NCBI GenBank assembly: GCA_964554645.1
Contig: CAZKPK010000001.1
Span: forward strand, 3,697 to 67,696
Direction: 5' to 3'
Origin: an uncultured Candidatus Saccharibacteria bacterium
GTDB lineage: Bacteria; Patescibacteriota; Minisyncoccia; Phycocordibacterales; UBA9973
Length of the DNA stretch: 64,000 nt
The position numbers were made by a program, and so were the translations under genes. Shown one piece after another: positions 1,848-57,579 of the stretch. The notes under the pieces are model-generated. The model was not told the DNA's origin, did not search any database, and worked only from the letters and a program-made list of their open reading frames with translations. The first letter of the stretch is position 1; every line of letters starts with the position of its first letter.

Positions 1848-4400
1848 TCAATTGTTTTTTAACCGTAATGAATTCAAAACCACGCTGATACTGCTAAAGG
1901 CCATGGCGACAGCGGCAAAAATCGGGTTGAGCAAAATTTTGAAAAATGGATATAGAATTCCGGCGGCGACAGGAATAAAGGCAATATTGTAAAAAAATGC
2001 CCAGAAAAGATTTTGTTTTATTATTCTCATTGTCCGTCTGGAAATTTTTATAACTTCCCAAATAAGCATCAGGTCGCCTCTCATTAAAGTGATATTAGCC
2101 GACTCCATCGCGATATCCGTGCCCTCTCCCATAGCGATGCCGATATTGGCTTGAGTAAGCGCTGGAGCGTCGTTGATACCATCGCCGATCATGGCCACAA
2201 TTTTTCCTTGATTTTGAAGCTCGCGAACTTTTTCTGACTTTTTATCGGGCAGAACTTCGCTCATTACATTGTTTATACCCACTTCCGCCGCAATCGCTCT
2301 GGCAGTGCGGTTGTTATCTCCGGTAATCATCCAGACGTCTATCTTGTTTTTTTGAAGAGCCTGAACCGCTTCTCTGGATTCCTTCTTTAACACATCGGCG
2401 ACAGCTAGTGCGCCCTTTATTTTTTTATCAACGGCAAGAATCATCACCGTTTTCCCTTCATTTTCAAGCTTGGCAATATCGATCTCATAGGGAGAAATGT
2501 CAAGATTAATATCTAAAATCAGGGTCCGGTTTCCCAAATACGCCTCAACTTTTTGAGATTCAATTTGCAAAATTCCCCGTAACCCTTTTCCAGAGATGGC
2601 CTTAAAATTTTCCAATTTATACAATCCAATTTTTTCTTTTATTACTTCATCCAAGATCGCTTGATCAAGAGGGTGGGAAGATTTTTGATCTAAACTTGCG
2701 GCATATTGCAATATGGCTTGCGCTAAAGGATGTTCCGATCGCTGTTCGAGCGAAGCGGCTAAATTAAGGATCTCCGTCCGATGGCCATTATTGAAAGCGA
2801 TAATATCAGTCAACTGTGGTTTCCCTTGAGTCAAAGTTCCAGTTTTATCCAAGATAATTGTATCTATCTTGCCTCCGATTTCGAGCGAAGTGGCGTCTTT
2901 AATCAAAATTCCTCTGGTAGCGGCGTTGCCAGAGGAAACCATAATAGCCATCGGAGTGGCAAGCCCGAGCGCGCAAGGGCAGGCAATTATCAGAACTGCC
3001 ACAAAATTAACAAGCGCAAAAGTGAAAGCGGGATTCGGTCCAAAGAAAAACCAAATAAGGAAAGTTAGAACAGCGACGATAAATACCGCCGGAACGAAAT
3101 AAGAAGAAACCAGATCGGCTAATCGCTGAATCGGCGCTTTAGAGCCTTGAGCCTCTTCCACCATTTTGATGATTTGCGAAAGCATCGTGTTTTTGCCAAT
3201 CTTGGTCGCGCGGAAGGTAAAGGCTCCGAATTTATTTATAGTGCTGCCGATGACCAAACCGCCAACTTTCTTGTGAACCGGCATGGATTCTCCGGTAATC
3301 ATTGATTCATCAATTTCTGATTCTCCTTCGGTTATTTTGCCGTCAACTGGAATTTTTTCTCCGGGTCGAACAACTATCAAATCCCCAACCTGCACTTCGG
3401 ATATCGGTATTTCAACTTCTTTGCCATCCCGCAGAATTTTTGCGGTTTTGGGCTGTAAGCCAATAAGTTTTTTAATAGCTTCGGAAGCCCTTCCTTTCAT
3501 CAAAATCTCAAAATATTTTCCCAAGAGAATTAAAACAATAATGATTGCCGAAGTGTCAAAATAGGTTGCCGGTGTTATTCCGCCCTTGGTGAAAAAAACG
3601 GGAAAGACTGTGACCGCTAGGCTGTAAAAATATGCCGCCAGCGTTCCGATGGCAATCAGGGTATTCATATCAGCCGTGCGGTATTTTATAAGAAGCTTCA
3701 GCCCGCTATAAAACTGAAAACCTACCCAAAACTGCACCGGCGTTGTCAGTAAAAGAAGCGTCCAATTGTTGTTCATAATTTTGGGCACAAAAGAAAACCA
3801 CTCCGGAAAACTGCCCAAAAATATAAAAAGCGAAAGAATGCCACCGATAATAAGTTTGCGTTTCATAATTTTTACCTGTCTTTCTCGCTCGATTTTTTCT
3901 TTATCCAAAATTTCTTCTGCCTCGCCTTCTTCTTTAATTGGCTTGTAGCCGGCGTCAGAAATAACCTTGAAAATTTGATCGATATTTACTAGAGAATAAT
4001 TAAAAATCACTTTGGCCCGCTGGTTTGAAAAATCTACATCAATATTTTTTATGCCCGATAATTTTTTGATAGCTCCCTGCACGACCATGGCGCAATGCGG
4101 AGAATCCATGCCTAAAACTTTTATTGAAATTGTTTTATTATCACCGCTAACAACGAGTTCGTCTTTTTTAGTAGAGCCAACATTAACATTTTTAGAAACT
4201 AAATGATATCCTGCTCCACTTACCGCCTTTTCAAGGCTTGATTCGGAAATAATATTTTCATCAAATTCAATTAAGGCTGATTCCGAAGCAAAATTGACCG
4301 AAGCTGAATGCACTCCGGCTGTCTTAGAAAGCACGCGCTCAATTGTCGCCACGCAACTCGCGCAATGCATTCCTTGAATTTTATATGTTTCCTTTTTCAT
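1848..4400 (-). CDS. copA: copper-translocating P-type ATPase with two N-terminal HMA domains
   Basis: two GMxCxxC heavy-metal-binding motifs (MHCASC, SPHCAMV); CPC membrane motif; DKTGTLT phosphorylation site; GDGINDAP. Confidence 0.92.
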
Positions 4401-8383: not shown

Positions 8384-8390
8384 AAAATTA

Positions 8391-8437
8391 TCCACCCCGT
8401 CCTTTGATTACAAAGTCCACCCCTCAAGAGGGGAATC
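8391..8437. repeat. Family-A palindromic repeat unit (TCCACCCCGTC-ctttgattacaaag-TCCACCCCTCAAGAGGGGAAT)
   Basis: 47 nt identical to the copy at 16013-16061; contains the CCCCTC-AA-GAGGGG hairpin. Confidence 0.85.
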
Positions 8438-9009: not shown

Positions 9010-9522
9010 ATGCGCAATAGGCAACCATCCACCCCGTCTCGACTAAAGTCGAGTCACCCCTCAAGAGGGGAACGTCCACCCCGACGCAAGCGTCACCCCT
9101 CAAGAGGGGAATGGAATCCAAAATCTCTATATCCATATTGGGAAATTCCTAAAAACAAAATTTTGACTGATAGGGCAAAAGATTTAAGAAAGGCGGGTAA
9201 TTTATCTGAAGTTATTTTTTGGCAAACTTTTAAAGATAAAAATAAATTAGGTTTTGATATTGATAGACAAGTTATAATCGGCAATTATATTGTAGATTTT
9301 TTTATTCCCGAACTAGGTTTAGTTTTTGAGATAGACGGTTCAAGTCATGACGATAAGCTTGAATATGATGCTGAACGAGATGCTTTTATGAGAGATTTAA
9401 ATTTAAAAGTGGTTAGAATTCTTGATATTGATGTGAAGAAGAATCTAGGAAGTGTCTATCAATTTGTATTAGAAACAATACATAAAAGAAAAAAGGATGC
9501 ATTTGAATTATTCCCCTCTTGA
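9010..9522 (+). CDS. DUF559 / Vsr-like (very-short-patch-repair endonuclease fold) domain protein
   Basis: C-terminal 110 aa match the DUF559 architecture (IVDFFIPELGLVFEIDGSSHDD...YDAERDAFMRDLNLKVVRI). N-terminal 35 aa are a translation of repeat A2 (HPSRGE x2). The stop codon TGA lies inside repeat A3. The true start may be an internal TTG near 9160. Confidence 0.7.
   Translation: MRNRQPSTPSRLKSSHPSRGERPPRRKRHPSRGEWNPKSLYPYWEIPKNKILTDRAKDLRKAGNLSEVIFWQTFKDKNKLGFDIDRQVIIGNYIVDFFIPELGLVFEIDGSSHDDKLEYDAERDAFMRDLNLKVVRILDIDVKKNLGSVYQFVLETIHKRKKDAFELFPS
9027..9117. repeat. Family-A palindromic repeat, two tandem units
   Basis: ATCCACCCCGTC-TCGACTAAAGTCGAG-TCACCCCTCAAGAGGGGAA followed by GTCCACCCCGAC-GCAAGC-GTCACCCCTCAAGAGGGGAAT. 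Confidence 0.85.
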
Positions 9523-9598
9523 GGGGTACTCCGACTTCAGTCGGAGTGGGGTGGATGTATGAGGGGTGACCCGATGACCATCGGGTCGGGGTGGATAG
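9511..9598. repeat. Family-A palindromic repeat, inverted orientation (TTCCCCTCTTGAGGGGT-ACTCCGACTTCAGTCGGAGT-GGGGTGGAT plus a degenerate second unit)
   Basis: reverse complement of the A consensus; supplies the stop codon of the DUF559 gene. Confidence 0.85.
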
Positions 9599-9665
9599 CT
9601 GTAGAACCAGAGTTATGCACATTATATTTCACTTAAGTTTGTTTTTGTAATATAATTAAGATACG

Positions 9666-14687: not shown

Positions 14688-14735
14688 GACCACAGGTCAG
14701 ACCTGTGGGATTCCCATAGGTCTGACCTATGGAAC
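14688..14735. repeat. Family-B REP doublet (CCACAGGTCAGACCTGTGG plus CCCATAGGTCTGACCTATGG)
   Basis: two adjacent imperfect-copy palindromes between pilT stop and pilC start; second unit matches the REPs flanking the RAYT gene at about 34.1-34.8 kb. Confidence 0.8.
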
Positions 14736-14744
14736 AATAAAGAT

Positions 14745-15953
14745 ATGTTATTCAAATACAAAGCGGTAGATCCTGAGGGTTTAAATAAAGAAGGAGAGAT
14801 TGACGCAACCAATCGCGATCTGGCGATAAGCGGTTTGCAGAGAAGAGGGTTGGTGATTATTTCCATCCAAGATGAAACAGAGCGCAAGTCTATTTTTTCA
14901 GTTTCTTTTTTTGAAAAAGTTTCCAATAAAGATGTAGTTATTCTTTCCCGCCAGATCGCGACTTTATTTGAAGCGCAAGTTTCGGCGCTGAAAGCCTTTA
15001 CGATGCTGGCGGCCAACGCGGAAAATAAGCTTCTGGGCCGCAAGCTGACCGTTATTGGCGATGATCTTCAAGCGGGGGTTTCCATTTCCGGCGCATTGGC
15101 GAAGCATCCGGATGTATTTTCCAGTTTTTATGTGAATATGGTCAAAGTGGGCGAGGAAACCGGAAAACTTGATCAGACCTTTCTATACTTGGCGGAGTAT
15201 TTAGATCGCCAATATTCCCTTACTTCCAAGACCAGAAATGCGCTTATTTATCCGGTTTTTGTGATTATTACGTTTTTTGTGGTTATGACTCTGATGTTTG
15301 TTGTGGTGATTCCAAAACTCTCTTCAATTATCCTGGATTCAGGGCAAGCAATACCGGTTTATACAAAAATAGTCATCGCAATTTCCAATCTTTTTGTTCA
15401 CTATGGTTTCTTTGTTTTGATTTTTTTGGTCTTGCTGGGCATCTGGGTTTGGAGATTATCTTCTACGGAAAAAGGGAAAGCGTATCTTGATTCATTAAAA
15501 CTCTCTACGCCGGCTGTAGGTAATTTATACAGGAAGCTTTTTCTTTCCAGAATGACGGACAGTTTAAATACCATGATTTCTTCCGGTATTCCAATAGTTC
15601 GGGCGATAGATATTACGGCCGAAGTTGTCGGCAGTCGCGTCTACAGAGGACTTCTAGGAGAGGTAGCGGATGAAGTAAAATCCGGTCTGGCGCTCTCTGT
15701 GGCGCTGGCCAGACATAAAGAAGAAATACCCAGTATTTTGGTGCAGATGGTGCAGGTGGGGGAGGAAACTGGTTCATTGGGGGCTATTTTAAAAACCTTG
15801 ACCAATTTCTATAAGCGCGAAGTGGATGATGCGATTGATACGTTAGTGGGCCTGATAGAACCGGTAATGATCGTGGTTTTGGGTCTCGGAGTGGGCATAC
15901 TCCTAGTTTCCGTATTAGGGCCAATTTACAATATGGCTGGAGGAATCAGTTAG
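14745..15953 (+). CDS. pilC: type IV pilus inner-membrane platform protein PilC (GspF family)
   Basis: two T2SS-F domains, 3 TM segments, about 400 aa. Confidence 0.9.
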   Translation: MLFKYKAVDPEGLNKEGEIDATNRDLAISGLQRRGLVIISIQDETERKSIFSVSFFEKVSNKDVVILSRQIATLFEAQVSALKAFTMLAANAENKLLGRKLTVIGDDLQAGVSISGALAKHPDVFSSFYVNMVKVGEETGKLDQTFLYLAEYLDRQYSLTSKTRNALIYPVFVIITFFVVMTLMFVVVIPKLSSIILDSGQAIPVYTKIVIAISNLFVHYGFFVLIFLVLLGIWVWRLSSTEKGKAYLDSLKLSTPAVGNLYRKLFLSRMTDSLNTMISSGIPIVRAIDITAEVVGSRVYRGLLGEVADEVKSGLALSVALARHKEEIPSILVQMVQVGEETGSLGAILKTLTNFYKREVDDAIDTLVGLIEPVMIVVLGLGVGILLVSVLGPIYNMAGGIS

Positions 15954-15960
15954 GATTGAT

Positions 15961-16077
15961 TCTCCTCTTGAGGAGTACTCCGACTCAGGTCGGAGGGAGG
16001 TGGATGAGTTTTTCCACCCCGTCCTTTGATTACAAAGTCCACCCCTCAAGAGGGGAATCGCTACCCCTGTGGATAAC
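15961..16077. repeat. Family-A composite repeat (degenerate inverted unit plus forward unit identical to A1)
   Basis: TCTCCTCTTGAGGAGTACTCCGACTCAGGTCGGAGGGAGGTGGAT followed by TTCCACCCCGTCCTTTGATTACAAAGTCCACCCCTCAAGAGGGGAATCG. Confidence 0.85.
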
Positions 16078-16241
16078 TTTCTTGCATGTTTTTTTGCCTC
16101 TATATGATATAATTACTCCATTAGAAAAATATTTCAGCCATAGGCTGATCCGCCTTAGGCGGAAAAAATAAGTCGAAAATATATTATTATTAGTTAATTA
16201 TTATTGACTTGCCCCGCTGGGGCGGGGTAGATAAATAAATT

Positions 16242-17955: not shown

Positions 17956-18783
17956 ATGCTTTTTTTGCTTTTGGTTATTTTTTTCATCCTCGGTCTCATC
18001 ATCGGCAGCTTTTTGAATGTGATAATTTATCGGCTGAATACAGCCAGATCGTTCGGAGGCAGGAGCGCTTGTATGTCTTGTCAGAACAGGCTTTGCTGGT
18101 ATGAACTTATCCCACTCTTTAGTTTTTTGGGTCTTGGGGGGAGATGCCGAAGCTGTAAAACTAAAATTTCTATCCAATATCCGTTGGTGGAACTTGCGAC
18201 TGGCTTGATTTTCGCCTTGTTATTTTTTAAACTGCAAGATGTTTTTTATACTAATTCTCTGGTTTTTTTCATCACTTATGATTACTTTGCTTTATTGTTT
18301 TCACTTCTTCTAGTCATTGCCACTTATGATCTCAAACATAAAATAATTCCGGATATTTTGTCTTTTGCTTTTGGCGCGCTTGCTTTTATTGGCCTATTTT
18401 TCTTCTCCGCCCAAGGCGGATCCGCCTTTGGCGGAAATAATATTTTTTACCCCCATTTTCCCACAGTTTTAGAATTTTTGTCGGGTGGATTAATAGCGTT
18501 ACCTTTTGCTTTTTTTTGGCTTGTATCTTCCGGTCGGTGGATGGGGTTAGGGGATGCCAAGCTTGCGCTCGGCATTGGGTGGTTTTTAGGCATATCTTCT
18601 GCGCTCTCGGCTTTAGTGGTTGCTTTCTGGTCTGGAGCCATCGTCGGAATAATTCTCGTTATTTTTTCCAGAAATAGAAAAATTGGCAGGCTGGGGATGA
18701 AAAGCGAAATTCCTTTTGCCCCTTTCCTAGTTTTTGGCGCGTTTCTAGCTTTTATTTTTGGATTGAATCTTTTTGGAATTTAA
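17956..18783 (+). CDS. pilD: prepilin peptidase / N-methyltransferase PilD (A24 family)
   Basis: polytopic membrane protein with cytoplasmic CxxC...CxxC tetrad (CMSCQ...CRSCK) and conserved Asp residues. Confidence 0.9.
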   Translation: MLFLLLVIFFILGLIIGSFLNVIIYRLNTARSFGGRSACMSCQNRLCWYELIPLFSFLGLGGRCRSCKTKISIQYPLVELATGLIFALLFFKLQDVFYTNSLVFFITYDYFALLFSLLLVIATYDLKHKIIPDILSFAFGALAFIGLFFFSAQGGSAFGGNNIFYPHFPTVLEFLSGGLIALPFAFFWLVSSGRWMGLGDAKLALGIGWFLGISSALSALVVAFWSGAIVGIILVIFSRNRKIGRLGMKSEIPFAPFLVFGAFLAFIFGLNLFGI

Positions 18784-20593: not shown

Positions 20594-23222
<2,629 letters not shown>

Positions 23223-29438: not shown

Positions 29439-31367
29439 ATGAAAATTTCTTATAATTGGCTCAAATGGTATATACCGGAAGCGCCTCCCGCAAACAAACT
29501 TGCGGATATTTTTAATTACCATATTTGCGAAGTGGAGAGTGTCCAACACCGAGTGTTGGACAAAGATAAAGATTGGATTTTTGATTTAAAAGTTTTGCCG
29601 AACCGCGCGCATGATTTACTTTCACATCAGGGAGTCGCTCGCGAGCTTGCTTCACTTTTAGATATCAAATATGTAGATCCCACGCCGAAATATAAAATTC
29701 CCGCCTCCGCCAAGGCTGCCCCCTTCGCTGAAGTGGCTACGAAGGCCAAGTCGGCGGGCAAGCCGGAATTAAAAATTGATGTTCAAACGCCTTTATGCAG
29801 GCGATATATGGGCAGAATTATAAGGGGAATAAAAATCGGTCCCAGTCCGGAGTGGATGGTGAAGCATTTAGAATCAATAGGACAGAGAAGTATAAATAAT
29901 ATTGTAGATGCCGCCAATATTGTAATGTTTGATTGCGGACAGCCGACTCATGCTTTTGATCTGGATAAAATGAATAGCAAGATAATAGTGCGCGAGGCAG
30001 AAAATGACGAAGACATAACCACTTTAGATAATCAGGGAATAAAATTAAAAAGTTCAAATATGGTGATTGTAGATTCTAAAAATATTTTAGCGATTGCCGG
30101 AATAAAAGGCGGGAAGATTGCGGAAGTGGACAATAATACAAAAAATATAATTCTTGAGGTTGCTAATTTTGATCCGGTTTCGGTGCGGAAAACAGCTCAA
30201 GCCTTTAATCTATTTACCGACGCGCGAAAGAGGTTTGAAAATGACCTGTCGCCAGAATTGGCACCATATGCCATGCGCGAACTCTCGGCTCTCATTTTTG
30301 AAATGTGTCCGGACGCTATTTTTGAAGATGTTGTGGATGTTTACCCCCACACCAATGATATTGGTGTGGGGGTTTATCCTGAAAAACAAAAGGAGAAAAA
30401 ACTTTCTTTTTCGGCTGAAAGAATTTCAAAAATTTTAGGACTCAAAGTTTCAGTTAAAGAAATAGAAAATATTTTGCAGAGATATAATTTTAGGTATAAA
30501 GAAAATAAAGGGAAATTTGAGGTTGTTGTGCCACCGATGCGTCTTGATTTAGCAATAGAAGAAGATATGGCGGAAGAGATAGGTAGAATTCTGGGATATG
30601 ATAAAGTAAAACCACAAATTCCCCACATGTCTGACATGTGGGAACCACAGGTTAATGAGATTTATGCAAAAATTTCCTGGGTCAGAAATAAATTATTGGC
30701 TGATGGATATTCCGAAGTGATGACTTATACTTTTCGAGAAAAGGGAGAAATAGAAGTGCAAAATAGCGCTTCCGATAAAAAGTTTTTGCGAACGAATTTA
30801 ACTGATGGATTGAAAGAAAGCGTTAAATTAAATCACGCCAATGCCCCGCTGTTAGGAATTGACGAAATTAAAGTTTTTGAAATTGGAACTGTTTTCAAAA
30901 AAGATAAAGAGCAGATAAATATTTGTTTTAGTGACAAAAAAAATATCACAGAAGTTTCTTTAAATGATTTTTGTAAAGATATGCTTTCTAGTGATTCTCC
31001 TCTTGAGGAGTACCCTTTAGGGGGAGGTGGAAAATTTATCCACCCCGTCGCAAGCGCCACCCCTCAAGAGGGGAATAGATTCAAGATGTGGTCTTTGTTT
31101 CCTTTCATTGCGCGCGATATCGCTGTCTTTGTGCCGGAAAAAATTAAGAGTTTGGAAATAGAAAAAATAATAAAAAAGAATATGGGAAATATGGTGATTC
31201 GAGGTCCGGAACTTTTTGATGAATTCAAAAAAGGCAATCAGATTTCTTATGCCTTCAGATTGGTTTTTCAATCTTACGATCGGACACTGACAGACGCAGA
31301 AGTGAATGAAATTATGGATAAAATAACTGACAAAATTAAGAAGAATAAAGGTTGGCAAGTAAGGTAA
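29439..31367 (+). CDS. pheT: phenylalanine--tRNA ligase beta subunit with in-frame Family-A repeat insertion
   Basis: B3/4, B5 and FDX-ACB-like domains. Residues ..SPLEEYPLGGGGKFIHPVASATPQEGN.. are encoded by the repeat at 30997-31078. Confidence 0.9.
   Translation: MKISYNWLKWYIPEAPPANKLADIFNYHICEVESVQHRVLDKDKDWIFDLKVLPNRAHDLLSHQGVARELASLLDIKYVDPTPKYKIPASAKAAPFAEVATKAKSAGKPELKIDVQTPLCRRYMGRIIRGIKIGPSPEWMVKHLESIGQRSINNIVDAANIVMFDCGQPTHAFDLDKMNSKIIVREAENDEDITTLDNQGIKLKSSNMVIVDSKNILAIAGIKGGKIAEVDNNTKNIILEVANFDPVSVRKTAQAFNLFTDARKRFENDLSPELAPYAMRELSALIFEMCPDAIFEDVVDVYPHTNDIGVGVYPEKQKEKKLSFSAERISKILGLKVSVKEIENILQRYNFRYKENKGKFEVVVPPMRLDLAIEEDMAEEIGRILGYDKVKPQIPHMSDMWEPQVNEIYAKISWVRNKLLADGYSEVMTYTFREKGEIEVQNSASDKKFLRTNLTDGLKESVKLNHANAPLLGIDEIKVFEIGTVFKKDKEQINICFSDKKNITEVSLNDFCKDMLSSDSPLEEYPLGGGGKFIHPVASATPQEGNRFKMWSLFPFIARDIAVFVPEKIKSLEIEKIIKKNMGNMVIRGPELFDEFKKGNQISYAFRLVFQSYDRTLTDAEVNEIMDKITDKIKKNKGWQVR
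30997..31078. repeat. Family-A composite repeat (degenerate inverted unit plus forward unit) inside pheT, in-frame
   Basis: CTCCTCTTGAGGAGTAC..GGAGGTGGA followed by ATCCACCCCGTCGCAAGCGCCACCCCTCAAGAGGGGAAT; same composite arrangement as 15961-16077. Confidence 0.85.
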
Positions 31368-31379
31368 AACCTGCTATAA

Positions 31380-33488
<2,109 letters not shown>

Positions 33489-33507
33489 ATTTATTATATT
33501 GCGCTTT

Positions 33508-34095
33508 ATGAAAAAATTAATCTTAGCTTCAAGTTCAAGCACAAGGAAAAATTTGCTTACAGAAGCCGGCTTGAATTTTGAAATTGATCCAAGTAGTTAC
33601 GAAGAAGATATAACATTATTAATGTCTCCAAAAGAATTAGTGGCTCATTTATCTTACGGTAAAGCAAAAGATGTAGCATCGAGGCACCAAGAAGCCATAG
33701 TTCTAGGAGCTGATACAATTATTGTCTATCAAGATAAAATTCTCGGTAAACCTCATACATCGGAAAGAGCTAAAGAAATGTTAAAAATGTTAAGTGGTAG
33801 GGCACACTTAGTTGTTACTGGTTTTACAATAATTGATACGAAAAATAATCATAGCATCTCCAAAGTTGTAGAAACAGAAGTGTTTTTCAAAAATCTCACA
33901 GATAGAGAAATAGATAATTATGTAGCTACCGGTGAACCACTGAATAAAGCAGGGGCTTATGCAATTTTAGAGAATGGTGGCAAATTTGTTAAAAAGATCG
34001 AAGGAAGTAGAACAAATGTGTCAGGTTTACCCATGGAGGAGTTAATGAATGTTCTAAAAAATTCCCATAGGTCAGACCTATGGGATGTGTTATAA
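33508..34095 (+). CDS. maf: Maf-like nucleoside-triphosphate pyrophosphatase; C-terminus encoded by a REP element
   Basis: KLILASSSSTRKNLL...GKP...; final residues ..NSHRSDLWDVL are a translation of REP copy B2. Confidence 0.85.
   Translation: MKKLILASSSSTRKNLLTEAGLNFEIDPSSYEEDITLLMSPKELVAHLSYGKAKDVASRHQEAIVLGADTIIVYQDKILGKPHTSERAKEMLKMLSGRAHLVVTGFTIIDTKNNHSISKVVETEVFFKNLTDREIDNYVATGEPLNKAGAYAILENGGKFVKKIEGSRTNVSGLPMEELMNVLKNSHRSDLWDVL
34063..34086. repeat. Family-B REP (TTCCCATAGGTCAGACCTATGGGATG)
   Basis: perfect palindrome; 5' flank of RAYT gene and 3' end of maf. Confidence 0.85.
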
Positions 34096-34102
34096 TAGCA
34101 GT

Positions 34103-34780
34103 ATGAGTCTCAGAGATTCGAATTTAGTGGAAAAAGAGTATTATCATATTTACAATCGCGGTAATGGAAAAAATAAAATTTTTAATTCCATAGAAGATTA
34201 CGATCGTTTTTGTAAACTTCTTTTTATTTGTAATTCTGAAAGAAGTTTTACATTCAGAGATTCAGTCGTAGATCAAAAAATTGATGCCTGGGATTTTGAA
34301 AGGGGAGAACCGCTTGTGGAAATATGTGCATGGGTTTTAATGCCTAATCATTTCCATATAATTTTAATTTCCCATAGGTCGGACCTATGGGATGAGAAGT
34401 ATAATCCAATAACGGAATTTATGAGAAAACTTTCTACGGCTTACGCTATGTATTTTAATAAGAAATATAACCGCACTGGATCTCTTTTTGAAGGAAAGTT
34501 TAAGTCTAAACATATTAGCAAAGATAATTATTTCCATTATTTATTTTCTTACATTCATCTTAATCCAATTAAATTAATCCAACCAGATTGGAAAGAAAAT
34601 GGTATCAAGAATAAAAAAGAAGCGATTGCTTATCTTATGAATTTTAAATATTCAAGTTTTCAAGATTTTTATGGTGTCTCTAGAAAAGAAGGAAAGATAA
34701 TAAATAAGAATTCGTTACCAGAAGATTTTAAATACAATCATGTTGAGGAACTTTTTGAATGGATAACTGATTCCCCATAG
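34103..34780 (+). CDS. REP-associated tyrosine transposase (RAYT; IS200/IS605-like Y1 HuH transposase)
   Basis: HIYNRG motif, HuH motif (PNHFHIIL), catalytic Tyr region (YIHLNP); flanked by, and interrupted in-frame by, Family-B REPs; stop codon TAG lies inside REP B4. Confidence 0.8.
   Translation: MSLRDSNLVEKEYYHIYNRGNGKNKIFNSIEDYDRFCKLLFICNSERSFTFRDSVVDQKIDAWDFERGEPLVEICAWVLMPNHFHIILISHRSDLWDEKYNPITEFMRKLSTAYAMYFNKKYNRTGSLFEGKFKSKHISKDNYFHYLFSYIHLNPIKLIQPDWKENGIKNKKEAIAYLMNFKYSSFQDFYGVSRKEGKIINKNSLPEDFKYNHVEELFEWITDSP
34369..34394. repeat. Family-B REP inserted in-frame inside the RAYT gene (encodes SHRSDLWD)
   Basis: TCCCATAGGTCGGACCTATGGGATG immediately after the HuH motif codons. Confidence 0.85.
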
Positions 34781-34799
34781 GTCAGACCTATGGGGAATC
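34769..34799. repeat. Family-B REP, extended perfect palindrome (GATTCCCCATAGGTC-a-GACCTATGGGGAATC)
   Basis: 15-bp arms; overlaps RAYT stop codon. Confidence 0.85.
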
Positions 34800-34834
34800 A
34801 CTTCTTGAAATTCTCAAAAAAGAAAGGAAATAAA

Positions 34835-35521
34835 TTATTTCTTGTTTATAGTTTCTAACTTTTCTCCTTTCCAGAATTCATATAGCGGTGAAATAAACAT
34901 TCCTGTCACAAAGAACCAGACCAAATCTTCAACTGGAATATTTAAAAGCATTATGCCAGAAATATTTTTATGTATCCAAAAATTTATCGCTGTCGGGTCG
35001 AAAGAGAAAATTATATAATAAATAGGTATAGAAATTAAGGTAATGATCACTCCACTCGTTAAAGACAGGATGATTAAATCTTTTCTGTAAAAATAAATTA
35101 CTAGCGTTGGAATTAACATTGTAAATAATGATGAATAGAAAGAGTGTATATTTATATAGAAAAATGTAAAATTTCCAATGAATGTTGACAACAATATCAC
35201 AATTATAAAATGTTTTAGATGAGTATTCTTTTTTCCACGAATTTTAACTAATTTATCCTTAAAGATTTCTTCATATATTGAAACTATTATTCCTCCGACA
35301 AAGAAACCAAAAAGAATATCTTCTATACCCACAATTGTTCCTGTTATGGTGGTAGGTTTCCACCAATCCTTTGTCCAGATAAAAGCTTCCATAAAAGTAG
35401 CCACTATGGCAACTAGACTACCCATCAATAATATTTCTTTTCTAAGATCTTTACGATATATATACAGAATCAACCAAACCGGAAAATACATTAAAACTCC
35501 AATTAAATATGTTGAATTCAT
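34835..35521 (-). CDS. hypothetical polytopic membrane protein
   Basis: about 7 hydrophobic segments; start overlaps thrS stop (operonic). Confidence 0.4.
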   Translation of the reverse strand: MNSTYLIGVLMYFPVWLILYIYRKDLRKEILLMGSLVAIVATFMEAFIWTKDWWKPTTITGTIVGIEDILFGFFVGGIIVSIYEEIFKDKLVKIRGKKNTHLKHFIIVILLSTFIGNFTFFYINIHSFYSSLFTMLIPTLVIYFYRKDLIILSLTSGVIITLISIPIYYIIFSFDPTAINFWIHKNISGIMLLNIPVEDLVWFFVTGMFISPLYEFWKGEKLETINKK

Positions 35522-37284
35522 TATTTTTTATCCTTCATTTCTTCCAAAAGTTTTTTAATTAGTTCTTCTTTTGATATTTGTCCGAGGTTACCGGTGCCCG
35601 CCTTGGTGGGTAAATCGCGGGATTCAAGGGTCACTTTTTTGGCTTCAATTTCTTTGTCACCGAGGACAATCCAATACGGGATTTTGTTTGTTTTTGCATC
35701 GCGGACTTTCTTGCCAAGATTTTCATCTCCGTCATCCAGCTCTGCGCGAATATTATTTTCTTTTAATAATTTAAAAATTTCTTTGGCGTATTCGTTATGA
35801 TTTTCTCGCACTGGAATTATCTTTACTTGTGTTGGTGACAACCAAAGAGGGAAAGCACCAGCGGTGTGCTCGATTAAAATAGAAAGAAATCTTTCAATTG
35901 ATCCCATAATCGCTGCGTGAATCATTACGATGCGTTCTTGTTGTCCTTTTTCGTTGATACAATATAAATCGAATCTTTCAGGCATATTCATATCGATCTG
36001 AATAGTAGCTACTTGATGTTCTCTGCCAATAGCGTCTTTGGCCATGAAATCTATCTTTGGTCCATAAAAAGCTGCTTCTCCTATAGCTTCAATCGCTTTT
36101 TCACCATTCTTTTCAATTATTTTTCTTAAAGCATTTTCTGAATTTACCCATATTTCAGAAGTGCCTAAGTATGCCTTCATATTTTTCGGATCGTGGAGGG
36201 AAAGACGGGGTTTTAGAATAAAACCAAAAGAACCATAGAAAGTTTTTATAATATTATAAATTTTACCCATTTCATCGCCCGCTTGATCTAATCGACAGAA
36301 TACGTGCGCGTCATCTTGAGTAATGGAACGTACTCTAGAAAGCCCAGATAGTTCTCCTGTTTGCTCATCGCGATAAACTTTCGTAGTCGAGGCATATCTT
36401 TGAGGGAGTTCTTTATAGCTCCACTGACGTCTGTTGTAAATCTGAGTATGATGCGGACAATTCATCGGCTTTATTGTAAATGTGTGTTTTTCTCGGGTAG
36501 TTATTCTAAACAAATCATCCCTGAATTTATCCCAGTGCCCAGACTTCTCGTAAAGCTCCTTCTTGGTTATGTGTGGAATATCCACTCTTTCATAACCGGC
36601 GATTTCACGCAGTTCCCAGACAAAACCGTCCAGCAAGTCTCTTAGCATTGTGCCTTTTGGGGTGAAGAGGGGAAGTCCTGCGCCTACTAGTTCTGAGAAA
36701 GTAAATAAATCAAGTTCTTGGCCGATCTTTTTATGGTCTCTTTTTTCTGCTTCTTCTCGCTGTTTTATATATACATCGAGTTCTTCCTTTGTTTCAAAAG
36801 CGAGTCCATAAATACGCGTGAGCATTTTGTTTTTCTCATCTCCACGCCAATAAGCTCCGGCTACACGGTCTAGCCTGAAAGCATCTACTGGCAGTTCTTT
36901 ATTTGGATGTTCCAAGTGCCCGCCTTTACACAGGTCCACCAAAGTTCCAGATGTATAGAAAGTTAATTTTTTTCCATCTTTAGCAAATTCCTCAAGTAGT
37001 TCGGTTTTGTATTCATTCCAGGCAAATTCTTTTCTAGCTTCTTCTAGTGTTACTTCGCGGCCGGTAAACGTATTCCAAGTCTTTATAATTTCCCGCATTT
37101 TCTTTTCTATTTTAGGGAAATCTTCAACAGAAACTGCTTTTGGTAAATCAAAATCTTGGTAAAAACCATCATCAATAGCTGGACCGATAGCATTTTTGGC
37201 TCCTGGATATAGTTCTTTTATGGCTGTTACCAAAAGGTGTGCTAAGGTGTGTCTGATCTTGTATGCGTTGTCCACTTTTTCCAT
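35521..37284 (-). CDS. thrS: threonine--tRNA ligase
   Basis: second-additional-domain HxxxH motif (RHTLAHLL), class II core motifs, C-terminal anticodon-binding domain. Confidence 0.9.
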   Translation of the reverse strand: MEKVDNAYKIRHTLAHLLVTAIKELYPGAKNAIGPAIDDGFYQDFDLPKAVSVEDFPKIEKKMREIIKTWNTFTGREVTLEEARKEFAWNEYKTELLEEFAKDGKKLTFYTSGTLVDLCKGGHLEHPNKELPVDAFRLDRVAGAYWRGDEKNKMLTRIYGLAFETKEELDVYIKQREEAEKRDHKKIGQELDLFTFSELVGAGLPLFTPKGTMLRDLLDGFVWELREIAGYERVDIPHITKKELYEKSGHWDKFRDDLFRITTREKHTFTIKPMNCPHHTQIYNRRQWSYKELPQRYASTTKVYRDEQTGELSGLSRVRSITQDDAHVFCRLDQAGDEMGKIYNIIKTFYGSFGFILKPRLSLHDPKNMKAYLGTSEIWVNSENALRKIIEKNGEKAIEAIGEAAFYGPKIDFMAKDAIGREHQVATIQIDMNMPERFDLYCINEKGQQERIVMIHAAIMGSIERFLSILIEHTAGAFPLWLSPTQVKIIPVRENHNEYAKEIFKLLKENNIRAELDDGDENLGKKVRDAKTNKIPYWIVLGDKEIEAKKVTLESRDLPTKAGTGNLGQISKEELIKKLLEEMKDKK

Positions 37285-39948: not shown

Positions 39949-42117
39949 ATGCGACTCAAAACTCTTGAACTGAATGGCTTTAAATCTTTTTCTCAAAAAA
40001 CAGTTTTGGAGTTTGATAACAGTATTGTCTGCATTGTCGGTCCGAACGGTTCAGGAAAATCAAATGTAGTAGAAGCCATCCGTTTTGTCTTGGGCGAGCA
40101 ATCAATGAAATCAATGCGTGGCAAGACGGGCGTTGATCTCATTTTCAAAGGATCCAAAAATTTGCCTAGGAAAACGCGGGCGGCCGTTACAATATATTTC
40201 AATAACTCTGACAAAATTTTTAGGCTTGAGGATGGTGTAGGAGAAAACATGAATTTGAATTATGACACTATCAGCATAACGCGCCAGGTTTTCCCTGACG
40301 GACTCAATAAATATATTTTAAATGGGACAGAAGTGCGCCTGAAAGATATTCACCACCTTCTGGCCTCGGTTAACATAGGTTCTTCCGGGCATCATATTAT
40401 TTCCCAGGGCGAGGCTGATAGGATTCTGAATGCCAGCCCAAAAGATAGGAAGGAAATGGTGGAAGATGCGTTGGGGCTCAAAATTTACCAGTATAAAATA
40501 AAAGAATCTGAGAGAAAACTGGAAAGAACAGAGAACAATATGAAAGAAGTGACCATGTTGCGCAGAGAAAATGCTCCGCACCTTAATTTCTTAAAGAAAC
40601 AAGTAGAAAAATTTGAAAGGGCGAAAGAAATGCAGGCAGAGTTAGCAATTCTCTACCAAGAATATTTAAAAAAAGAAAACGTTTATTTAAATAAAGAGAA
40701 GGAAAATTTTCTCGCAGAAAGAAATAAAATAGCCAAAGAACTGGAAAGTGTTGTTAGTAAAATTTCTCTGACTGAAGACAGTGGTTCAGCTAAGGGAAAT
40801 CAAAAAATAGAGGAGCTAAGAACTATTGAGCAAAAATTAAATGAAATCCGCAGCGCCAAGGGAGAAATGAACAGAAAACTGGGAAGAATTGAAGGGATGA
40901 TAGAGGCCAAACAGAATAGAGTTAAAATTTCTGGCCGGTGTCCCATGTGTGGCAGAGAGTGGGGGGAAATGAGCAAAGAACAACTCGAAAACAGAGAAAA
41001 CAATCAGCAAGAATTAGCAGAATTGAAAAATTCTCAAGCTGGTATTCTAACGCAGGTGCAGGAAATGGAAAATAAAGAGAAAGAGCTTGTCGATCAGATA
41101 GAAGAATTGAAGCAGGAAATAAATAAACAGATGGAAACCTTGCGCGATTTGGAGCGGGAGAAGTTCAGCTTTAAGGTTAGGCATCAGGAATTGTCTTCAG
41201 CTTTGGAACTGGTGCGCATCAAAGAAACGAATTTAAAAGGCAGGCTTGAAGCCTTTGAAAGTGAGATCAAAGAAGGTGTAGCGCTTATAGGTCAAGAGAT
41301 TTTGTCCTATCCGCCCGAGGCGGACCAGCCTTGGGCTGGTAAAGAAATAGATGAAACAAGGCAAGCTGAGTTAAAGAAAAAAATTGAGCGTTTGAAAATA
41401 AAATTGGAAGATGCCGGTCTTGGCGGCGGAGCGGAAGTTTTGAAAGAATTCAAAGAAGTTTCGGAGAGGGATAATTTTTTAGCGAAAGAAATGGAAGATT
41501 TATCTAAAAGCATGGTGGCGTTGCAAAAGCTCATAGAAGATTTAAAGGAAAAGATAGACACAGAATTCAAGGAGGGTATCAAAAAAATAAACAAAGAATT
41601 TCAAGAATTTTTCTCCTTAATGTTTGGCGGGGGGACGGGATCTCTTGCGATAGTGGTGGAGAATAAAAAGAGACGAAGTATGAGCGAAGAAGAGGCTAAA
41701 TTCAGCGAAGCTGAATCGCCCGACGCTTCTGAAGAAGCGTTTAGGGAAGAGATTGTTTTTGAACAGGGCATAGAAATAAATGTTTCACTTCCTCATAAAA
41801 AGGTCAAAGAGCTTCAGGCGCTCTCGGGCGGGGAGCGATCACTCACTTCTATTGCTCTTCTCTTTGCGATGTCGCAAGTGAATCCTCCGCCATTTTTGGT
41901 GCTTGATGAAACCGATGCTGCGCTGGACGAAGCCAACTCGCGCAAATATGGAGATATGTTGGAAAAACTTTCCAAACATTCTCAGCTTATTGTTGTTACC
42001 CACAACCGCGAGACGATGTCCCGCGCCGGCGTGCTCTATGGCGTAACGATAGGCGGAAATGACACCTCCAAGCTTCTTTCTGTTAAATTCGAAGAAGCCA
42101 CCCAAATTGCGAAATAA
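39949..42117 (+). CDS. SMC-family ATPase, short form (722 aa) with CPxCG zinc-hook-like motif in place of a hinge
   Basis: SMC N-head (LELNGFKSF...IVGPNGSGKSNVVEAIRFVLGEQS..S.RG), SMC C-head (LSGGERSLTSIALLFAM..PPPFLVLDETDAALDEAN; VLYGVT), long coiled-coil heptads, central ISGRCPMCGREWGE. Confidence 0.8.
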   Translation: MRLKTLELNGFKSFSQKTVLEFDNSIVCIVGPNGSGKSNVVEAIRFVLGEQSMKSMRGKTGVDLIFKGSKNLPRKTRAAVTIYFNNSDKIFRLEDGVGENMNLNYDTISITRQVFPDGLNKYILNGTEVRLKDIHHLLASVNIGSSGHHIISQGEADRILNASPKDRKEMVEDALGLKIYQYKIKESERKLERTENNMKEVTMLRRENAPHLNFLKKQVEKFERAKEMQAELAILYQEYLKKENVYLNKEKENFLAERNKIAKELESVVSKISLTEDSGSAKGNQKIEELRTIEQKLNEIRSAKGEMNRKLGRIEGMIEAKQNRVKISGRCPMCGREWGEMSKEQLENRENNQQELAELKNSQAGILTQVQEMENKEKELVDQIEELKQEINKQMETLRDLEREKFSFKVRHQELSSALELVRIKETNLKGRLEAFESEIKEGVALIGQEILSYPPEADQPWAGKEIDETRQAELKKKIERLKIKLEDAGLGGGAEVLKEFKEVSERDNFLAKEMEDLSKSMVALQKLIEDLKEKIDTEFKEGIKKINKEFQEFFSLMFGGGTGSLAIVVENKKRRSMSEEEAKFSEAESPDASEEAFREEIVFEQGIEINVSLPHKKVKELQALSGGERSLTSIALLFAMSQVNPPPFLVLDETDAALDEANSRKYGDMLEKLSKHSQLIVVTHNRETMSRAGVLYGVTIGGNDTSKLLSVKFEEATQIAK

Positions 42118-45287: not shown

Positions 45288-45403
45288 TTATATACAATAC
45301 AGATATGGAGCAGTGCATCCGGTCGTAAAACTGCTAAACATTTCCACCTGAGGTGGATTCGCCTTTGGAGGAAAAAATTAAAAGTAATTTACTGAAATAA
45401 CAT

Positions 45404-53100: not shown

Positions 53101-53791
53101 TCCCGCCTCTGGCGGGACAGGTGTAAAATCTGCTCACTCCCGCGATATTTCAGGATCCGGCGGGGAAAAAATAATCAAAGTGCTTTCAGATCTGGAAGAT
53201 AGTAAGGCGGGGGCTAAAAACGAAATAGAATATCTTGTTCCGTTTCACAGAATGCCTACCGTTAAAGCAGGTGATCACATAAAGAAAGGGGATCTCCTAA
53301 CTGACGGGTCAGCGGATATTGCTGAAATGTTTAAATTTGGCAACAAGGAATTAGTCGAAAATTATATAATTCGGGAAATAAACAAAGTTTATGAATTGCA
53401 AAGCGCTTCAATTTCCAGAAAGCATACGGAAATAATTATCCGCCAAATGTTTTCGCGCCGAAAAATAAAAGACGCGGGCGACACTAATTTTTCCATCGGC
53501 GATATTGTTGAGAATACCGCATTTATAGAAGAAAATCAGAGAGTTGCGCGCTTGGCGGTTAAACCGCCAAGCGCGCTTGGCGGTTTAACCGCCAAAGCAG
53601 AAACAGTGGTGCTTGGTATCACGGAAGTGTCGCTTCGCACTAAAAGTTGGCTCTCGGCGGCTTCGTTCCAAAACACCAATCGCGTTCTTATTGAAAACGC
53701 GGTCAAGGGCGGGGTAGATTCTTTGAGAGGGTTAAAAGAGAATGTTATAATCGGTAGGTTAATTCCGGCTGGAACTGGATTTAAAAAATAA
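50120..53791 (+). CDS. rpoC: DNA-directed RNA polymerase beta' subunit, with in-frame Family-C repeat near the C-terminus
   Basis: Zn-binding CxxC..CxxC, NADFDGD catalytic motif, trigger loop, C-terminal VIVGRLIPAGTG; residues RLAVKPPSALGGLTAKAE encoded by repeat 53547-53598. Confidence 0.97.
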   Translation: MKTLNTTEFNSIALRLASPEQIKEWSFGEVTKPETINYRTGRSERGGLFDEKIFGPEKDYECYCGKYRRIRYKDIICEKCGVEVTRSIVRRERMGHIELGTPVSHIWFLRGVPSRMSILLNISVTDLEKVIYFAGYIITKVHEDEKEAVIANLDKEYKSKLKNATDDDTREKLKNLLSITKKEIGEIYEGKVLNEISFHHYSLKYGTCFEANIGAEAIYSIFKNLDLDKLKTHTEKMIEKASVAEKEKLQKRLSLIRAMTYAGIRPEWMFLTVFPVIPPVLRPMVALDGGRHATSDLNDLYRRVINRNNRLKKLKEINAPDVILRNEKRIIQEAVDALIDNSIAKQNDSAAMSQSQKRPLKSLSDNLKSKQGLFRQNLLGKRVDYSGRSVIVVGPELKLNQCGLPKHMALELFRPFVISKILQAELAFNIRGANKLIEERGGEVWAMLEEVIAGKYVLLNRAPTLHRLGIQAFNPILIEGNAIQVHPLVCQAFNADFDGDQMAVYVPLLEEAQWEAKEFMASNKNLLKPQNGDPIVHPRMDMVLGSFWMTKSIEGEVGEGKYFSRPNTAVTAYDYGIISMRAKIKVLPMDKPKYKKFNGEIFETTVGRIIFNSILPDDFHYVNDEMTQDRLSSLLDELIMHSGVENIPHILDTIKAFGFKYSTISGTTWGLDNVSVSSEKPKIIAEGKKLEKEIISQWQEGLLSEEEKYQKVIEVWTHMKKNLEKVLPKTVDKHSSTYDIFTSKARGTMSSLMQMTGMIGLIQNNQGKTLEFPIIPCYQEGLSPIEYFVITHGARKGASDTALNTAKAGYLTRRLVDVAQDVVITEVDCGTKEGRIVTKENISGIEIPLSKNIRGRVLAGDLKNKNGKVVYKKGFLVTKEEAYNIEGAGFTEVFVRSPLTCRTVHGLCVMCYGLDLGRNRLVELGEAVGIIAAQAIGEPGTQLTLRTFHAGGVAGTDITTGLPRVEEIFERRIPKNPAIISETDGEVIEIKIKDPASGGTGVKSAHSRDISGSGGEKIIKVLSDLEDSKAGAKNEIEYLVPFHRMPTVKAGDHIKKGDLLTDGSADIAEMFKFGNKELVENYIIREINKVYELQSASISRKHTEIIIRQMFSRRKIKDAGDTNFSIGDIVENTAFIEENQRVARLAVKPPSALGGLTAKAETVVLGITEVSLRTKSWLSAASFQNTNRVLIENAVKGGVDSLRGLKENVIIGRLIPAGTGFKK
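53102..53118. repeat. GC-rich hairpin TCCCGCC-TCT-GGCGGGA inside rpoC
   Basis: perfect 7-3-7 palindrome in otherwise AT-rich coding sequence; a second related GGCGGGG at 53153-53163; similar CCCGCC...GGCGGGC pair in pheT at 29701-29759. Confidence 0.4.
53547..53598. repeat. Family-C palindromic repeat (GCGCGCTTGGCGGTTAAACCGCCAAGCGCGC plus TTGGCGGTTTAACCGCCAA) in-frame inside rpoC
   Basis: 31-nt perfect palindrome followed by second unit; same core as ligA copy. Confidence 0.85.
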
Positions 53792-55761: not shown

Positions 55762-57579
55762 ATGTCCTCATCAGTTGACCAAATTAAATCACGAATAGAC
55801 ATCCTCTCGCTTGTAAGCTCTTATATCAAGCTAGATAAGGCAGGAGCGAGTTGGAAAGCCAAATGTCCGTTTCATAATGAAAAAACACCCTCATTTTTTG
55901 TCTCGCCGGAACGGGGGAGTTATTATTGTTTTGGTTGCGAGGCTTCGGGAGACATTTTCACTTTTGTGGAAGAATTTGAAGGGTTGGATTTTAAGGGCGC
56001 TCTGAAACTTTTAGCAGATCGCGCAGGAGTGGTGCTTGAAGTTTACAGTCAGGAAAAGAAAGAAGTAGGTGAATTGATTTTTTTGGAGAAAGAAAAATTA
56101 TATCGAGTGATGGAAGAAACCACGAAGTTTTTTGAAAATAATTTTCCGCCCAAGGCGGATCAGCCTCGAGCTGAAAAGGAAATAAAAGAAGCATTAGAGT
56201 ATCTGAAATCGCGTGGTTTAACCGATAAAACTATCAAAGATTTTAGAATAGGTTATGCCATTCTTGATTGGCGAACACTTTATGATTACCTAAAGTCTAA
56301 GAATTTTTCTGATGAAGAAATAGAGCTTGCCGGATTGGCCAAGAAACCGGAAGACAAGACAAAAGCAATGTATGACCGCTTTCGCGGACGCATAATGTTC
56401 CCAATTTCCGATTCCAGTGGCCGGATTATTGCTTTTTCGGGAAGAATTCTGATTGATGATGGAAAATCGGCGAAGTATTTAAATAGTCCGGAAACCCCGA
56501 TATTTAATAAATCTTCCGTGCTTTTTGGCATAGATAAAGCAAAAGATTCCATCCGCAAAAATAACTTTTCCATTTTAGTTGAAGGGCAGATGGATTTAGT
56601 TTTATCGCATCAGGTCGGTTTTAAAAATACTGTTGCATCTTCTGGCACGGCGATGAATGATTCGATAATATCTAAAGAGAACATTATAAATAATTTAGGG
56701 CTTGTTTGCAGATTATCTAAAAATATCGTTCTGGCTTACGATGCTGACAAAGCGGGAGTGAATGCTTCCAATCGTTTTGCAAAAATCGCATTATCTTTAG
56801 GGATGGATGTGAAAGTGGCCAGTATGAGAGAGGGTGTCGATCCAGCCGATATTATCTCCAAAGAGGGTAAAGATGCGTGGCATCAAGCAATCCGAGATTC
56901 AAAACATTTTATTCCATTTATGCTAGAGCGAATCTTGAAAGATGCATCTGGTGATGGAAGAAAAGTGGGCAGAGGAATTCAAGAACGTCTTTTGCCTTTT
57001 CTGAAGGATTTAGACAGCGCGATGGAAAAATCCCATTTTATCAAACTTATTAGCGATAAATCCGGCATAGCTGAAAAAGCTCTAATGGAGGATTTGCAGA
57101 AAGTAGAGTCAGAATTGAAATATGAAACAGAAGAAATCAAAATCGCGAAAGAAAATGTGGACAAAAAATTGAGAAAAGATCCGATTGAACGCAGACTGCT
57201 GGGAATAGCTTTTTGGCAGGAAAGTGTTAAAAGTAAGATCGTAGATCCAGAAATCATTTTTGCGAAACTAGGTAAAGTGAAGGAATATTATAAAGACAAA
57301 AAAGAAGATTTAATTTTCGAAGCGGAAGCTTTTTATTCCAATAGCGAAAACTTACAAAAAGATGTGCGAGAGATGCTACTTTCGATTGAAGAAGAATATC
57401 TTAATGAGGAGCTTGTTAAGAAAATGATAGAACTTAAAAATCTGAAAGATGAAAAGGCTAAATCCAATGTAATTGGATCGCCCGACACTTCAGCAAAAGT
57501 GTTTAGGGACGAAGCAGAAATTTTAAAAAGAATAAATGAAATAAATAAGAGGAAAGAAGAAATTAAAAATAGTCGCTAA
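55762..57579 (+). CDS. dnaG: DNA primase
   Basis: CHC2 zinc finger ([30 protein letters not shown]), TOPRIM ([10 protein letters not shown]), DnaG core. Confidence 0.9.

Follow-up and report, generated by a model that had tools for sequence, protein, structure and literature searches.

Three open reading frames in the stretch of DNA analysed here (64,000 nucleotides in all, hereafter the window) end in or just past a repeated sequence. These are maf, which codes for the Maf nucleotide pyrophosphatase, the neighbouring gene for a RAYT-like HUH/Y1 transposase, and a DUF559 gene. How did these three genes come to share this kind of end? The sequence-only reading of this DNA had held that palindromes were inserted secondarily into three existing genes and replaced their native C-termini. 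We propose that two causes gave the same look: very probably, RAYT and DUF559 are the repeats' own genes, and maf is a host gene lying against a repeat-bounded cassette.

The window corresponds to contig JACPLP010000008 of a MAG of Candidatus Nomurabacteria (CPR/Patescibacteria). The maf gene (33508–34095, forward strand, 195 aa) follows gyrB (31392–33488), and 7 nt separate its stop from the start of the RAYT gene (34103–34780, forward strand, 225 aa). On the reverse strand come a gene for a lycopene-cyclase-domain membrane protein (34835–35521) and thrS (35521–37284). The start of RAYT at 34103 (MSLRD) was taken from the N-termini of homologues and from the NCBI gene call; a start at 34085, inside the upstream palindrome, was considered and rejected for the same two reasons. 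An NCBI MAG and three assemblies made from SRA runs, all four independent, show an identical junction between maf and the palindrome. This junction is therefore not an assembly artefact.

The repeat found at maf and RAYT is a REP-type palindrome. Allowing up to 3 mismatches on both strands of the window, CCCATAGGTCnGACCTATGGG gave 9 matches versus 0 expected by chance, and these fell at four places: 14689–14733 (two adjacent copies), 34064–84, 34371–91, and 34774–94. The palindrome itself, TCCCATAGGTCnGACCTATGGGA, was seen at 34063–85, 34370–92, and 34768–800, with two more copies in 14690–14732. A variant palindrome, CCCACATGTCTGACATGTGGG, was located at 30622–42, giving 5 copies of the cognate REP and 1 variant in the 64-kb window. 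REP B2 (TCCCATAGGTCAGACCTATGGGA, 34063–34085) is the 5′ REP of the RAYT cassette and lies wholly within the maf ORF, in an open frame. REP B3 (34370–34392) sits in frame within the RAYT ORF, just past the HUH strand, and codes for residues 90–97, SHRSDLWD. REP B4 (34768–34800, 33 nt, 16-bp stem) is the 3′ REP and encodes the last RAYT residues, D-S-P, together with the stop TAG. In the two REPs on either side of RAYT (B2 and B4), the palindrome is broken only at a single base of the loop, an A in each. In related loci, flanking REPs occurred in inverted and in direct arrangements.

The protein encoded between these REPs carries an HUH motif, H83-F-H85, and a catalytic-Tyr motif, SYIHLNPIK. In an alignment of 23 RAYT sequences, the HUH was invariant, as were Y150, H152, L153, N154, and K157, and P155 nearly so. 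Its scores fell below the cut-off for NF047646 (E=5e-12, 45.9 bits, cut-off 80) and for PF01797 (Y1_Tnp; E=5e-4, 20.6, cut-off 23). Such sub-threshold scores point to a divergent clade, hence our use of the term RAYT-like. The predicted AF2 model (pLDDT 80.6, pTM 0.81) had as its top PDB match (E 8.6e-5, prob 1.00) 4ER8_A, the E. coli RAYT in complex with a REP hairpin, and the next matches were the TnpA proteins of IS200, IS608, and ISDra2. A RAYT gene flanked by REPs is referred to as a REPtron, wherein REPs lie at a very short distance from the rayt stops or directly past them, and a catalytic Tyr with an NP(L/V)(R/K) motif near it is a RAYT trait (Nunvar et al. 2010, PMC2817692). The gene in the window resembles a REPtron (PMC2817692; 4ER8) by its HUH, its YxxxNP(I/L/V)(K/R) signature, its best fold match to 4ER8, and its REPs on both sides, and also by being single-copy and syntenic across related genomes. 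It differs by scoring below the NF047646 and PF01797 cut-offs, by its length of ~225 aa, by an extra C-terminal helical region, and by a third REP in frame. A search of the literature for RAYT in Patescibacteria returned nothing relevant, which is no proof of novelty.

RAYT ends GAT TCC CCA TAG, and the stop (34778–80) does lie inside REP B4, as the sequence-only reading had stated. That the repeat had been inserted there and had replaced the C-terminus was not borne out by the homologues, of which there were more than 7,900, equal in length (~225 aa) at 100% query coverage; 40 of the best 120 end in P followed by a stop. We drew 144 distinct RAYT loci from genome and metagenome contigs and recorded where the stop falls with respect to the 3′ hairpin. 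The stop was inside the hairpin at 41 loci, 27 of which use TAG, overlapped it partly at 4, and lay beyond it, the ORF reading through, at 8. The hairpin came 0–5 nt after the stop at 25 loci and more than 5 nt after it at 34, and the remaining 32 showed no perfect hairpin at the RAYT 3′ end. Taken with the reports of Nunvar et al. (2010) and Di Nocera et al. (2013), this pattern indicates that a stop inside the terminal repeat is the norm of the family and not a remodelling.

The DUF559 gene (9010–9522, forward strand) belongs to a family with a Vsr-like endonuclease fold and scored 76.8 bits against PF04480 (gathering 20.6) over residues 52–157. It ends TTC CCC TCT TGA. The TGA (9520–22) was correctly placed by the earlier reading inside repeat A3, within CCCCTCTTGAGGGG (9513–26), which belongs to a 47-nt inverted repeat, I1 (9026–9072 and 9511–9557, arms 81% complementary). 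The first ~36 codons are also repeat-encoded, a point absent from that reading. On the 5′ side, two copies of the module TCCACCCCG-[hairpin]-CACCCCTCAAGAGGGGAA span 9025–9118, and on the 3′ side two copies of TTCCCCTCTTGAGGGGT-[hairpin]-GGGGTGGA, in inverted orientation, span 9511–9601. Both features were shared by the homologues: 92 of 120 end with F-P-S-stop or a one-residue variant, and an HPSRGE-type repeat-coded N-terminal segment is present in 106 of the 120. At the DNA level, three further loci (L168, L169, and L171) are built as TCCACCCCG-[hairpin]-CACCCCTCAAGAGGGGAA, the DUF559 gene, and TTCCCCTCTTGAGGGGTG-[hairpin]-CGGGGTGGA, with the TGA in the 3′ repeat; at L169, the 5′ repeat sits just upstream of the DUF559 ATG, not within the ORF. 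L168 is syntenic with the window, and the other two are in unrelated contexts. Since the homologues end with the same motif in the same inverted repeat, repeat insertion did not replace this C-terminus; the stop-in-repeat is, by this comparison, an inherited architecture of the family and not a secondary remodelling.

The view that palindromes were inserted into existing genes is thus refuted for RAYT and DUF559 by the termini of their homologues: the stop-in-repeat is family-wide and the protein lengths are normal. What these two genes have in common is that they form compact units, bounded by REP hairpins in the case of RAYT and by ~45-bp terminal inverted repeats in that of DUF559, so built that the 3′ repeat overlaps the last 1–3 codons and the stop (CCA TAG G in the REP stem; TGA in CCCCTCTTGAGGGG). 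As a side observation, the DUF559 gene with its ~45-bp terminal inverted repeats is apparently a compact mobile unit occurring in differing genomic contexts. Repeat-A modules are scattered, solo or paired, over the window (8388–8437, 15946–16059, and 30981–31082), and one inverted repeat-A pair lies in frame in the linker of pheT between the tRNA_synthFbeta and FDX-ACB domains. Our literature search gave nothing relevant on DUF559 with inverted repeats, an absence that proves no novelty.

Host gene maf stands apart, as it is the only one of the three whose end codons are repeat sequence and whose element-free orthologues are shorter. Codons 186–193 (TCC CAT AGG TCA GAC CTA TGG GAT) spell SHRSDLWD and coincide with the perfect palindrome at 34063–34085. 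They are followed by GTG TTA TAA, that is, V-L-stop, contributed by the RAYT leader TGTGTTATAATAGCAGT (34086–34102, forward strand). There is no in-frame stop within 34060–34092, and the predicted C-terminal peptide with its added tail reads ...VLKNSHRSDLWDVL. The claim that the terminal residues and the stop of maf are within the REP was accordingly right for residues 186–193 and wrong for the stop (34093–95), which is found 8 nt beyond the palindrome, in the RAYT leader.

How much of the native protein was lost? The Maf domain was complete: PF02545 matched residues 3–185 with 198 bits, covering profile positions 1–186 of 187, TIGR00172 matched residues 1–184 with 191.9 (cut-off 117), and B. 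subtilis Maf (1EX2) aligned with residues 2–185. Among the 120 Maf homologues listed, the tail, unique to this organism, was present in P0001 only and in 0 of the 119 others, which end 1–6 residues past the GLPxEExxxxLK helix. The closest orthologue (80% identity), at locus L001, ends VLRNN-stop and lies in a gyrB-maf-thrS context with a 4-nt gap and no RAYT. The two DNAs are collinear up to AAAAAT (34062) and diverge exactly at the start of the REP; Maf orthologues stop at this junction or one codon past it. Because the homology with L001 ends at the REP and the profiles reach ~185, we infer that Maf gained 10 residues (186–195, SHRSDLWDVL) in place of the stop and about 1–3 displaced native residues, the whole Maf fold (1–185) being intact. 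The remodelling of the maf 3′ end is, on these alignments, real but minimal, with no substantial native C-terminus replaced. Of the earlier proposal, a 10-residue extension is thus retained, and a replaced C-terminus is not. Taking the three genes together, secondary insertion into existing genes is an improbable account: it fits with all three ORFs ending in or just past a repeat and with a displaced Maf-type end downstream of the cassette (see below), but Maf lost at most ~1–3 residues, and the other two genes have family-wide stops in repeats and normal lengths.

The opposite possibility was that the repeats merely abut natural stops and that no protein was changed. This is the situation of pilM, T2SSE, and T2SSF in the same window, where repeats lie 4–7 nt past the stops without overlap. 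Moreover, host ORFs seldom ran into RAYT-flanking REPs: upstream this was so in 5 of 111 cases and downstream in 2 of 113, some of them resting on dubious hairpins. The rarity of such read-ins makes maf an exception and not the rule. Yet, for maf itself, this possibility is hardly credible: alignment with orthologues shows the native domain intact upstream, with ~1–3 residues lost, but no natural stop precedes the REP, the ORF runs on for 10 codons, and orthologues stop at the junction or one codon past.

The sequence of events that we favour would run as follows. The cassette would have integrated at the extreme 3′ end of maf and displaced its terminal codons. The maf gene now lies directly against a REP-RAYT-REP unit, the 5′ REP standing where the last 1–3 codons and the stop had been. 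The old stop would have lain some three codons past the junction (LKN ahead of the junction here, versus LKK ahead of it and ERK-stop behind it), and the gene-proximal copy of maf would thereby have lost its stop. Since the REP is open in two of three reading frames and maf enters through an open one, translation would go on until it meets a stop in frame, which first happens at the TAA in the TATAAT box of the RAYT leader, and would add SHRSDLWDVL. The window has a coding fraction of 0.93 and its genes lie a few bases apart, so that a repeat arriving at the end of a gene could hardly avoid overlapping coding sequence. The Maf tail, if translated as the ORF predicts, is probably a tolerated, neutral appendage.

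The displaced codons may persist as a relic past the 3′ REP, as they seem to do in several related loci. Directly after REP B4, in the maf reading frame, a short segment of the non-coding spacer (34795–34833, forward strand) reads ESLLEILKKERK-stop, which resembles Maf tails such as DEVLEILKQENK-stop with an ungapped BLOSUM score of 36. None of 100 shuffles and none of the 44 other C-termini of the window attained this score, and of 400 random 12-mers 1 did. At the nucleotide level, the similarity of the relic to the window's own maf end was not above chance, with 45 of 500 shuffles reaching the score. As a consequence, a simple recent target duplication does not fit the window locus.

Clearer cases were met elsewhere. 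At L092, the true gyrB end lies 8–13 nt before the 5′ REP, and a 36/41-nt copy with its stop comes directly after the 3′ REP (duplicates at 1–150 and 830–880); L088 has a decayed copy of the gyrB end after the 3′ REP (2690–2745). The end of ligA is duplicated at L039 (convergent, 31/32 nt, ~2900–2935 and ~3705–3740), that of an fpg-like gene at L025 (~2915–2950 and ~3710–3760), and L011 has an equivalent flanking duplicate (~1975–1995 and ~2755–2775). Some REP-RAYT-REP cassettes are therefore seen bracketed by 17–41-nt direct duplicates of the last codons and stop of a host gene (gyrB, ORF144, fpg-like, ligA). The duplicated segment, 17–41 nt long, differs at every locus, which argues that it is target-derived and not element-borne. 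These bracketing duplicates at five loci suggest that the very 3′ end of a host gene can serve as the integration site of the cassette, 17–41 nt being duplicated in the process. To our knowledge, IS200/IS605-type HUH transposition is neither known nor expected to duplicate targets. Integrative elements targeting gene 3′ ends, for example at tRNA genes, leave two copies of the gene end behind, one at either junction (att-site duplication). The cassettes described here are similar in being bracketed by two copies of a host end, one attached to the gene and the other a relic; they are dissimilar in that the duplicated segment differs per locus (gyrB, ligA, fpg-like, ORF144, maf) and there is no integrase. 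We also considered flanking duplicates as a universal feature of the cassette and rejected this, as they concern only about 5 of ~100 loci. DNA-level duplicates were detected at 4–5 of 92 loci (about 5%), one of which (L049) is REP-like sequence, and at the protein level in 2 of 42 upstream and 1 of 22 downstream tests.

A different history would be that the cassette has long resided between gyrB and thrS and that a maf gene or allele was later recombined beside it, with its right junction at the REP. As a matter of fact, the gyrB-RAYT-thrS order recurs in many relatives (L008, L010, L011, L088, L091, L092, and L093), with differing small genes or none in between, and eight related genomes have RAYT in this interval without maf, which speaks more for a cassette that stayed in place while its neighbours varied than for a fresh insertion into maf. 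Base composition is in keeping with this: the 2-kb bin with the maf end, RAYT, and the membrane-protein gene has a GC of 0.315, versus ~0.38–0.40 in the neighbouring bins, and maf and the cassette lie in the lowest-GC stretch of the window. The relic is, as said above, unlike the present maf end at the nucleotide level. Two observations speak the other way. The relic past the 3′ REP resembles the end of Maf and not, as at L092 and L088, that of GyrB, which implies that a maf gene was already the neighbour of the cassette when the duplication arose, and a gyrB-maf-thrS arrangement without RAYT does exist (L001). RAYT between gyrB and thrS in many relatives, together with this RAYT-free arrangement, suggests that the cassette was vertically inherited at a variable gyrB-thrS hotspot. 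Given the nucleotide mismatch of the relic, the low frequency of duplicates (~5%), and the variable neighbours, a resident cassette with a recombined maf stays a live, though clearly less likely, alternative to integration at the maf end, in which recombination may have brought today's maf allele to its place beside the cassette.

The position of the maf stop raised the further possibility that the overlap is adaptive, the tail or the stop within the RAYT promoter/leader coupling or regulating the expression of maf and RAYT. Past the 5′ REP, at 5–8 nt from the ATG of RAYT, many loci show an extended −10-like box of the TGnTATAAT type, conserved at L088, L089, L091, L094, and others, and the leader is a candidate promoter. 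The maf stop falls inside this conserved box, 7 nt from RAYT, and REP B2 is terminator-like on both strands. However, the terminator-like matches were barely above expectation (2 vs 0.7 ± 0.8 in a terminator/promoter scan of 33400–35000) and were given no weight, the tail occurs in one organism only among the 120 homologues listed, the junction is not conserved in sister lineages, and REP read-ins are rare across loci. An adaptive overlap is consequently very unlikely.

It is already known that REPs can provide TAG stops, overlap the ends of RAYT genes, and extend host ORFs. GTAG-type REPs give TAG stops to flanking ORFs or lie inside ORFs, may overlap the 5′ or 3′ end of RAYT, and often lie within genes for replication and repair (Di Nocera et al. 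2013, PMC3733652). The elements described here are alike in having a TAG in the REP stem, in overlapping the RAYT end, and in the palindromes found inside ligA, pheT, and rpoC. They are unlike them in their CPR/Patescibacteria host and in their core, (C/A)TAGG...CCTA(G/T), which is not a 5′ GTAG tag. Small repeats that extend gene 3′ ends or sit internally in frame are also known from Rickettsia RPEs, BOX/RUP, and BRE (Delihas 2011, PMC3184786, section 15). Of this kind are the tail of maf and the insertions in ligA, pheT, and rpoC; in contrast to RPEs (~105–146 nt), the elements here measure 23–45 nt and are tied to identifiable cognate genes, RAYT and DUF559, in the same window. Our observations add a CPR example to the overlap between repeats and ORF ends known from Proteobacteria and Rickettsia, and they show how ultra-compact genomes accommodate selfish repeats. 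For annotation, they mean that the Maf C-terminus, the DUF559 N-terminus, and several ligA, pheT, and rpoC "insertions" are repeat-encoded and not lineage-specific protein features.

A more novel result than the overlaps at gene ends is the REP inside the RAYT gene. Di Nocera et al. (2013, PMC3733652) made no mention of a REP inside a RAYT ORF, and we found no description of one in the searchable literature, an absence which does not prove novelty. An in-frame internal REP after the HUH motif was present in the window (REP B3) and at loci L009–L011, L014, L019, L020, and L088–L118. In 111 of 151 RAYT matches, the linker past the HUH has 13 residues and no REP-like hairpin, and the others have longer linkers. 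With the linker masked, the long-linker RAYTs formed one pure clade of 36 in an NJ tree, with 2 Fitch changes versus ~33 when labels were shuffled. In the AF2 model, the internal REP segment is a low-pLDDT loop between the strand 84–90 and the helix 102–121. In 26 members, the internal hairpin was perfect and a flanking REP could be detected, and for these we compared the two: a median of 92% of the length of the internal hairpin was an exact substring of the flanking REP of its own locus, versus 20% with the REPs of other loci.

The internal copies also bore the mark of compensatory change. When 23 sequences were aligned in codon register, 92.3% of cells were paired, and double changes were seen in 8 of 9 pairs. 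Cells with compensatory changes numbered 40, versus 12.5 ± 2.5 in shuffles (0 of 500 reaching this number), and slid controls collapsed. Some of these changes are synonymous (CAT..CTA <-> CAC..CTG) and others are not (HRSDLW, PRSDLG, PRQGLG, PKSDLG). The internal copy has decayed in 10 of the 36. A reading to which we give about an even chance is that a Patescibacteria RAYT clade keeps its own REP in frame past the HUH, the REP having entered once and tracked the REP of each locus since. This would point either to ongoing homogenisation, RAYT-mediated or by gene conversion, or to a function, as a master copy or autoregulatory site. If true, and together with the duplicated host ends, it would mean that these RAYT cassettes, held to be domesticated, are still active on their own DNA and now and then move with it. 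The internal REP, the bracketed cassettes, and the DUF559 unit bear on RAYT immobility and on the co-evolution of REP/RAYT specificity. If confirmed, the co-evolving intragenic REP, the RAYT cassettes bracketed by duplicates, and a DUF559 gene accompanied by inverted repeats of its own and by MITE-like derivatives would be the weightier results.

Incidentally, we noticed palindromes inside other genes. The window holds 19 GC-rich perfect hairpins within ORFs, including ligA, pheT, and rpoC, and long perfect palindromes with stems of 10–22 bp occur in frame in essential genes. They lie at 21353–21375, 21533–21555, and 21763–21804 in ligA, two of these three being insertions relative to E. coli LigA, at 29540–62, 30343–73, and 30622–42 in pheT, and at 53552–53595 in rpoC. 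Two further palindrome families were recognised, TCCGCCnnnGGCGGA doublets (16134–16170, 18406–18442, 41310–41346, 45343–45379, and 56145–56181) and CTTGGCGGTTTAACCGCCAAG (21354–21809 and 53551–53602), which are partly intergenic and partly within the prepilin peptidase, SMC, ligA, and rpoC genes; no cognate gene for either was identified. Last, the pheT-internal CCCACATGTCTGACATGTGGG (30622–30642), which encodes PHMSDMW, does not match the REP type of the window's RAYT and matches that flanking a different RAYT, at L012 (CCCACATGTCGGACATGTGGG).
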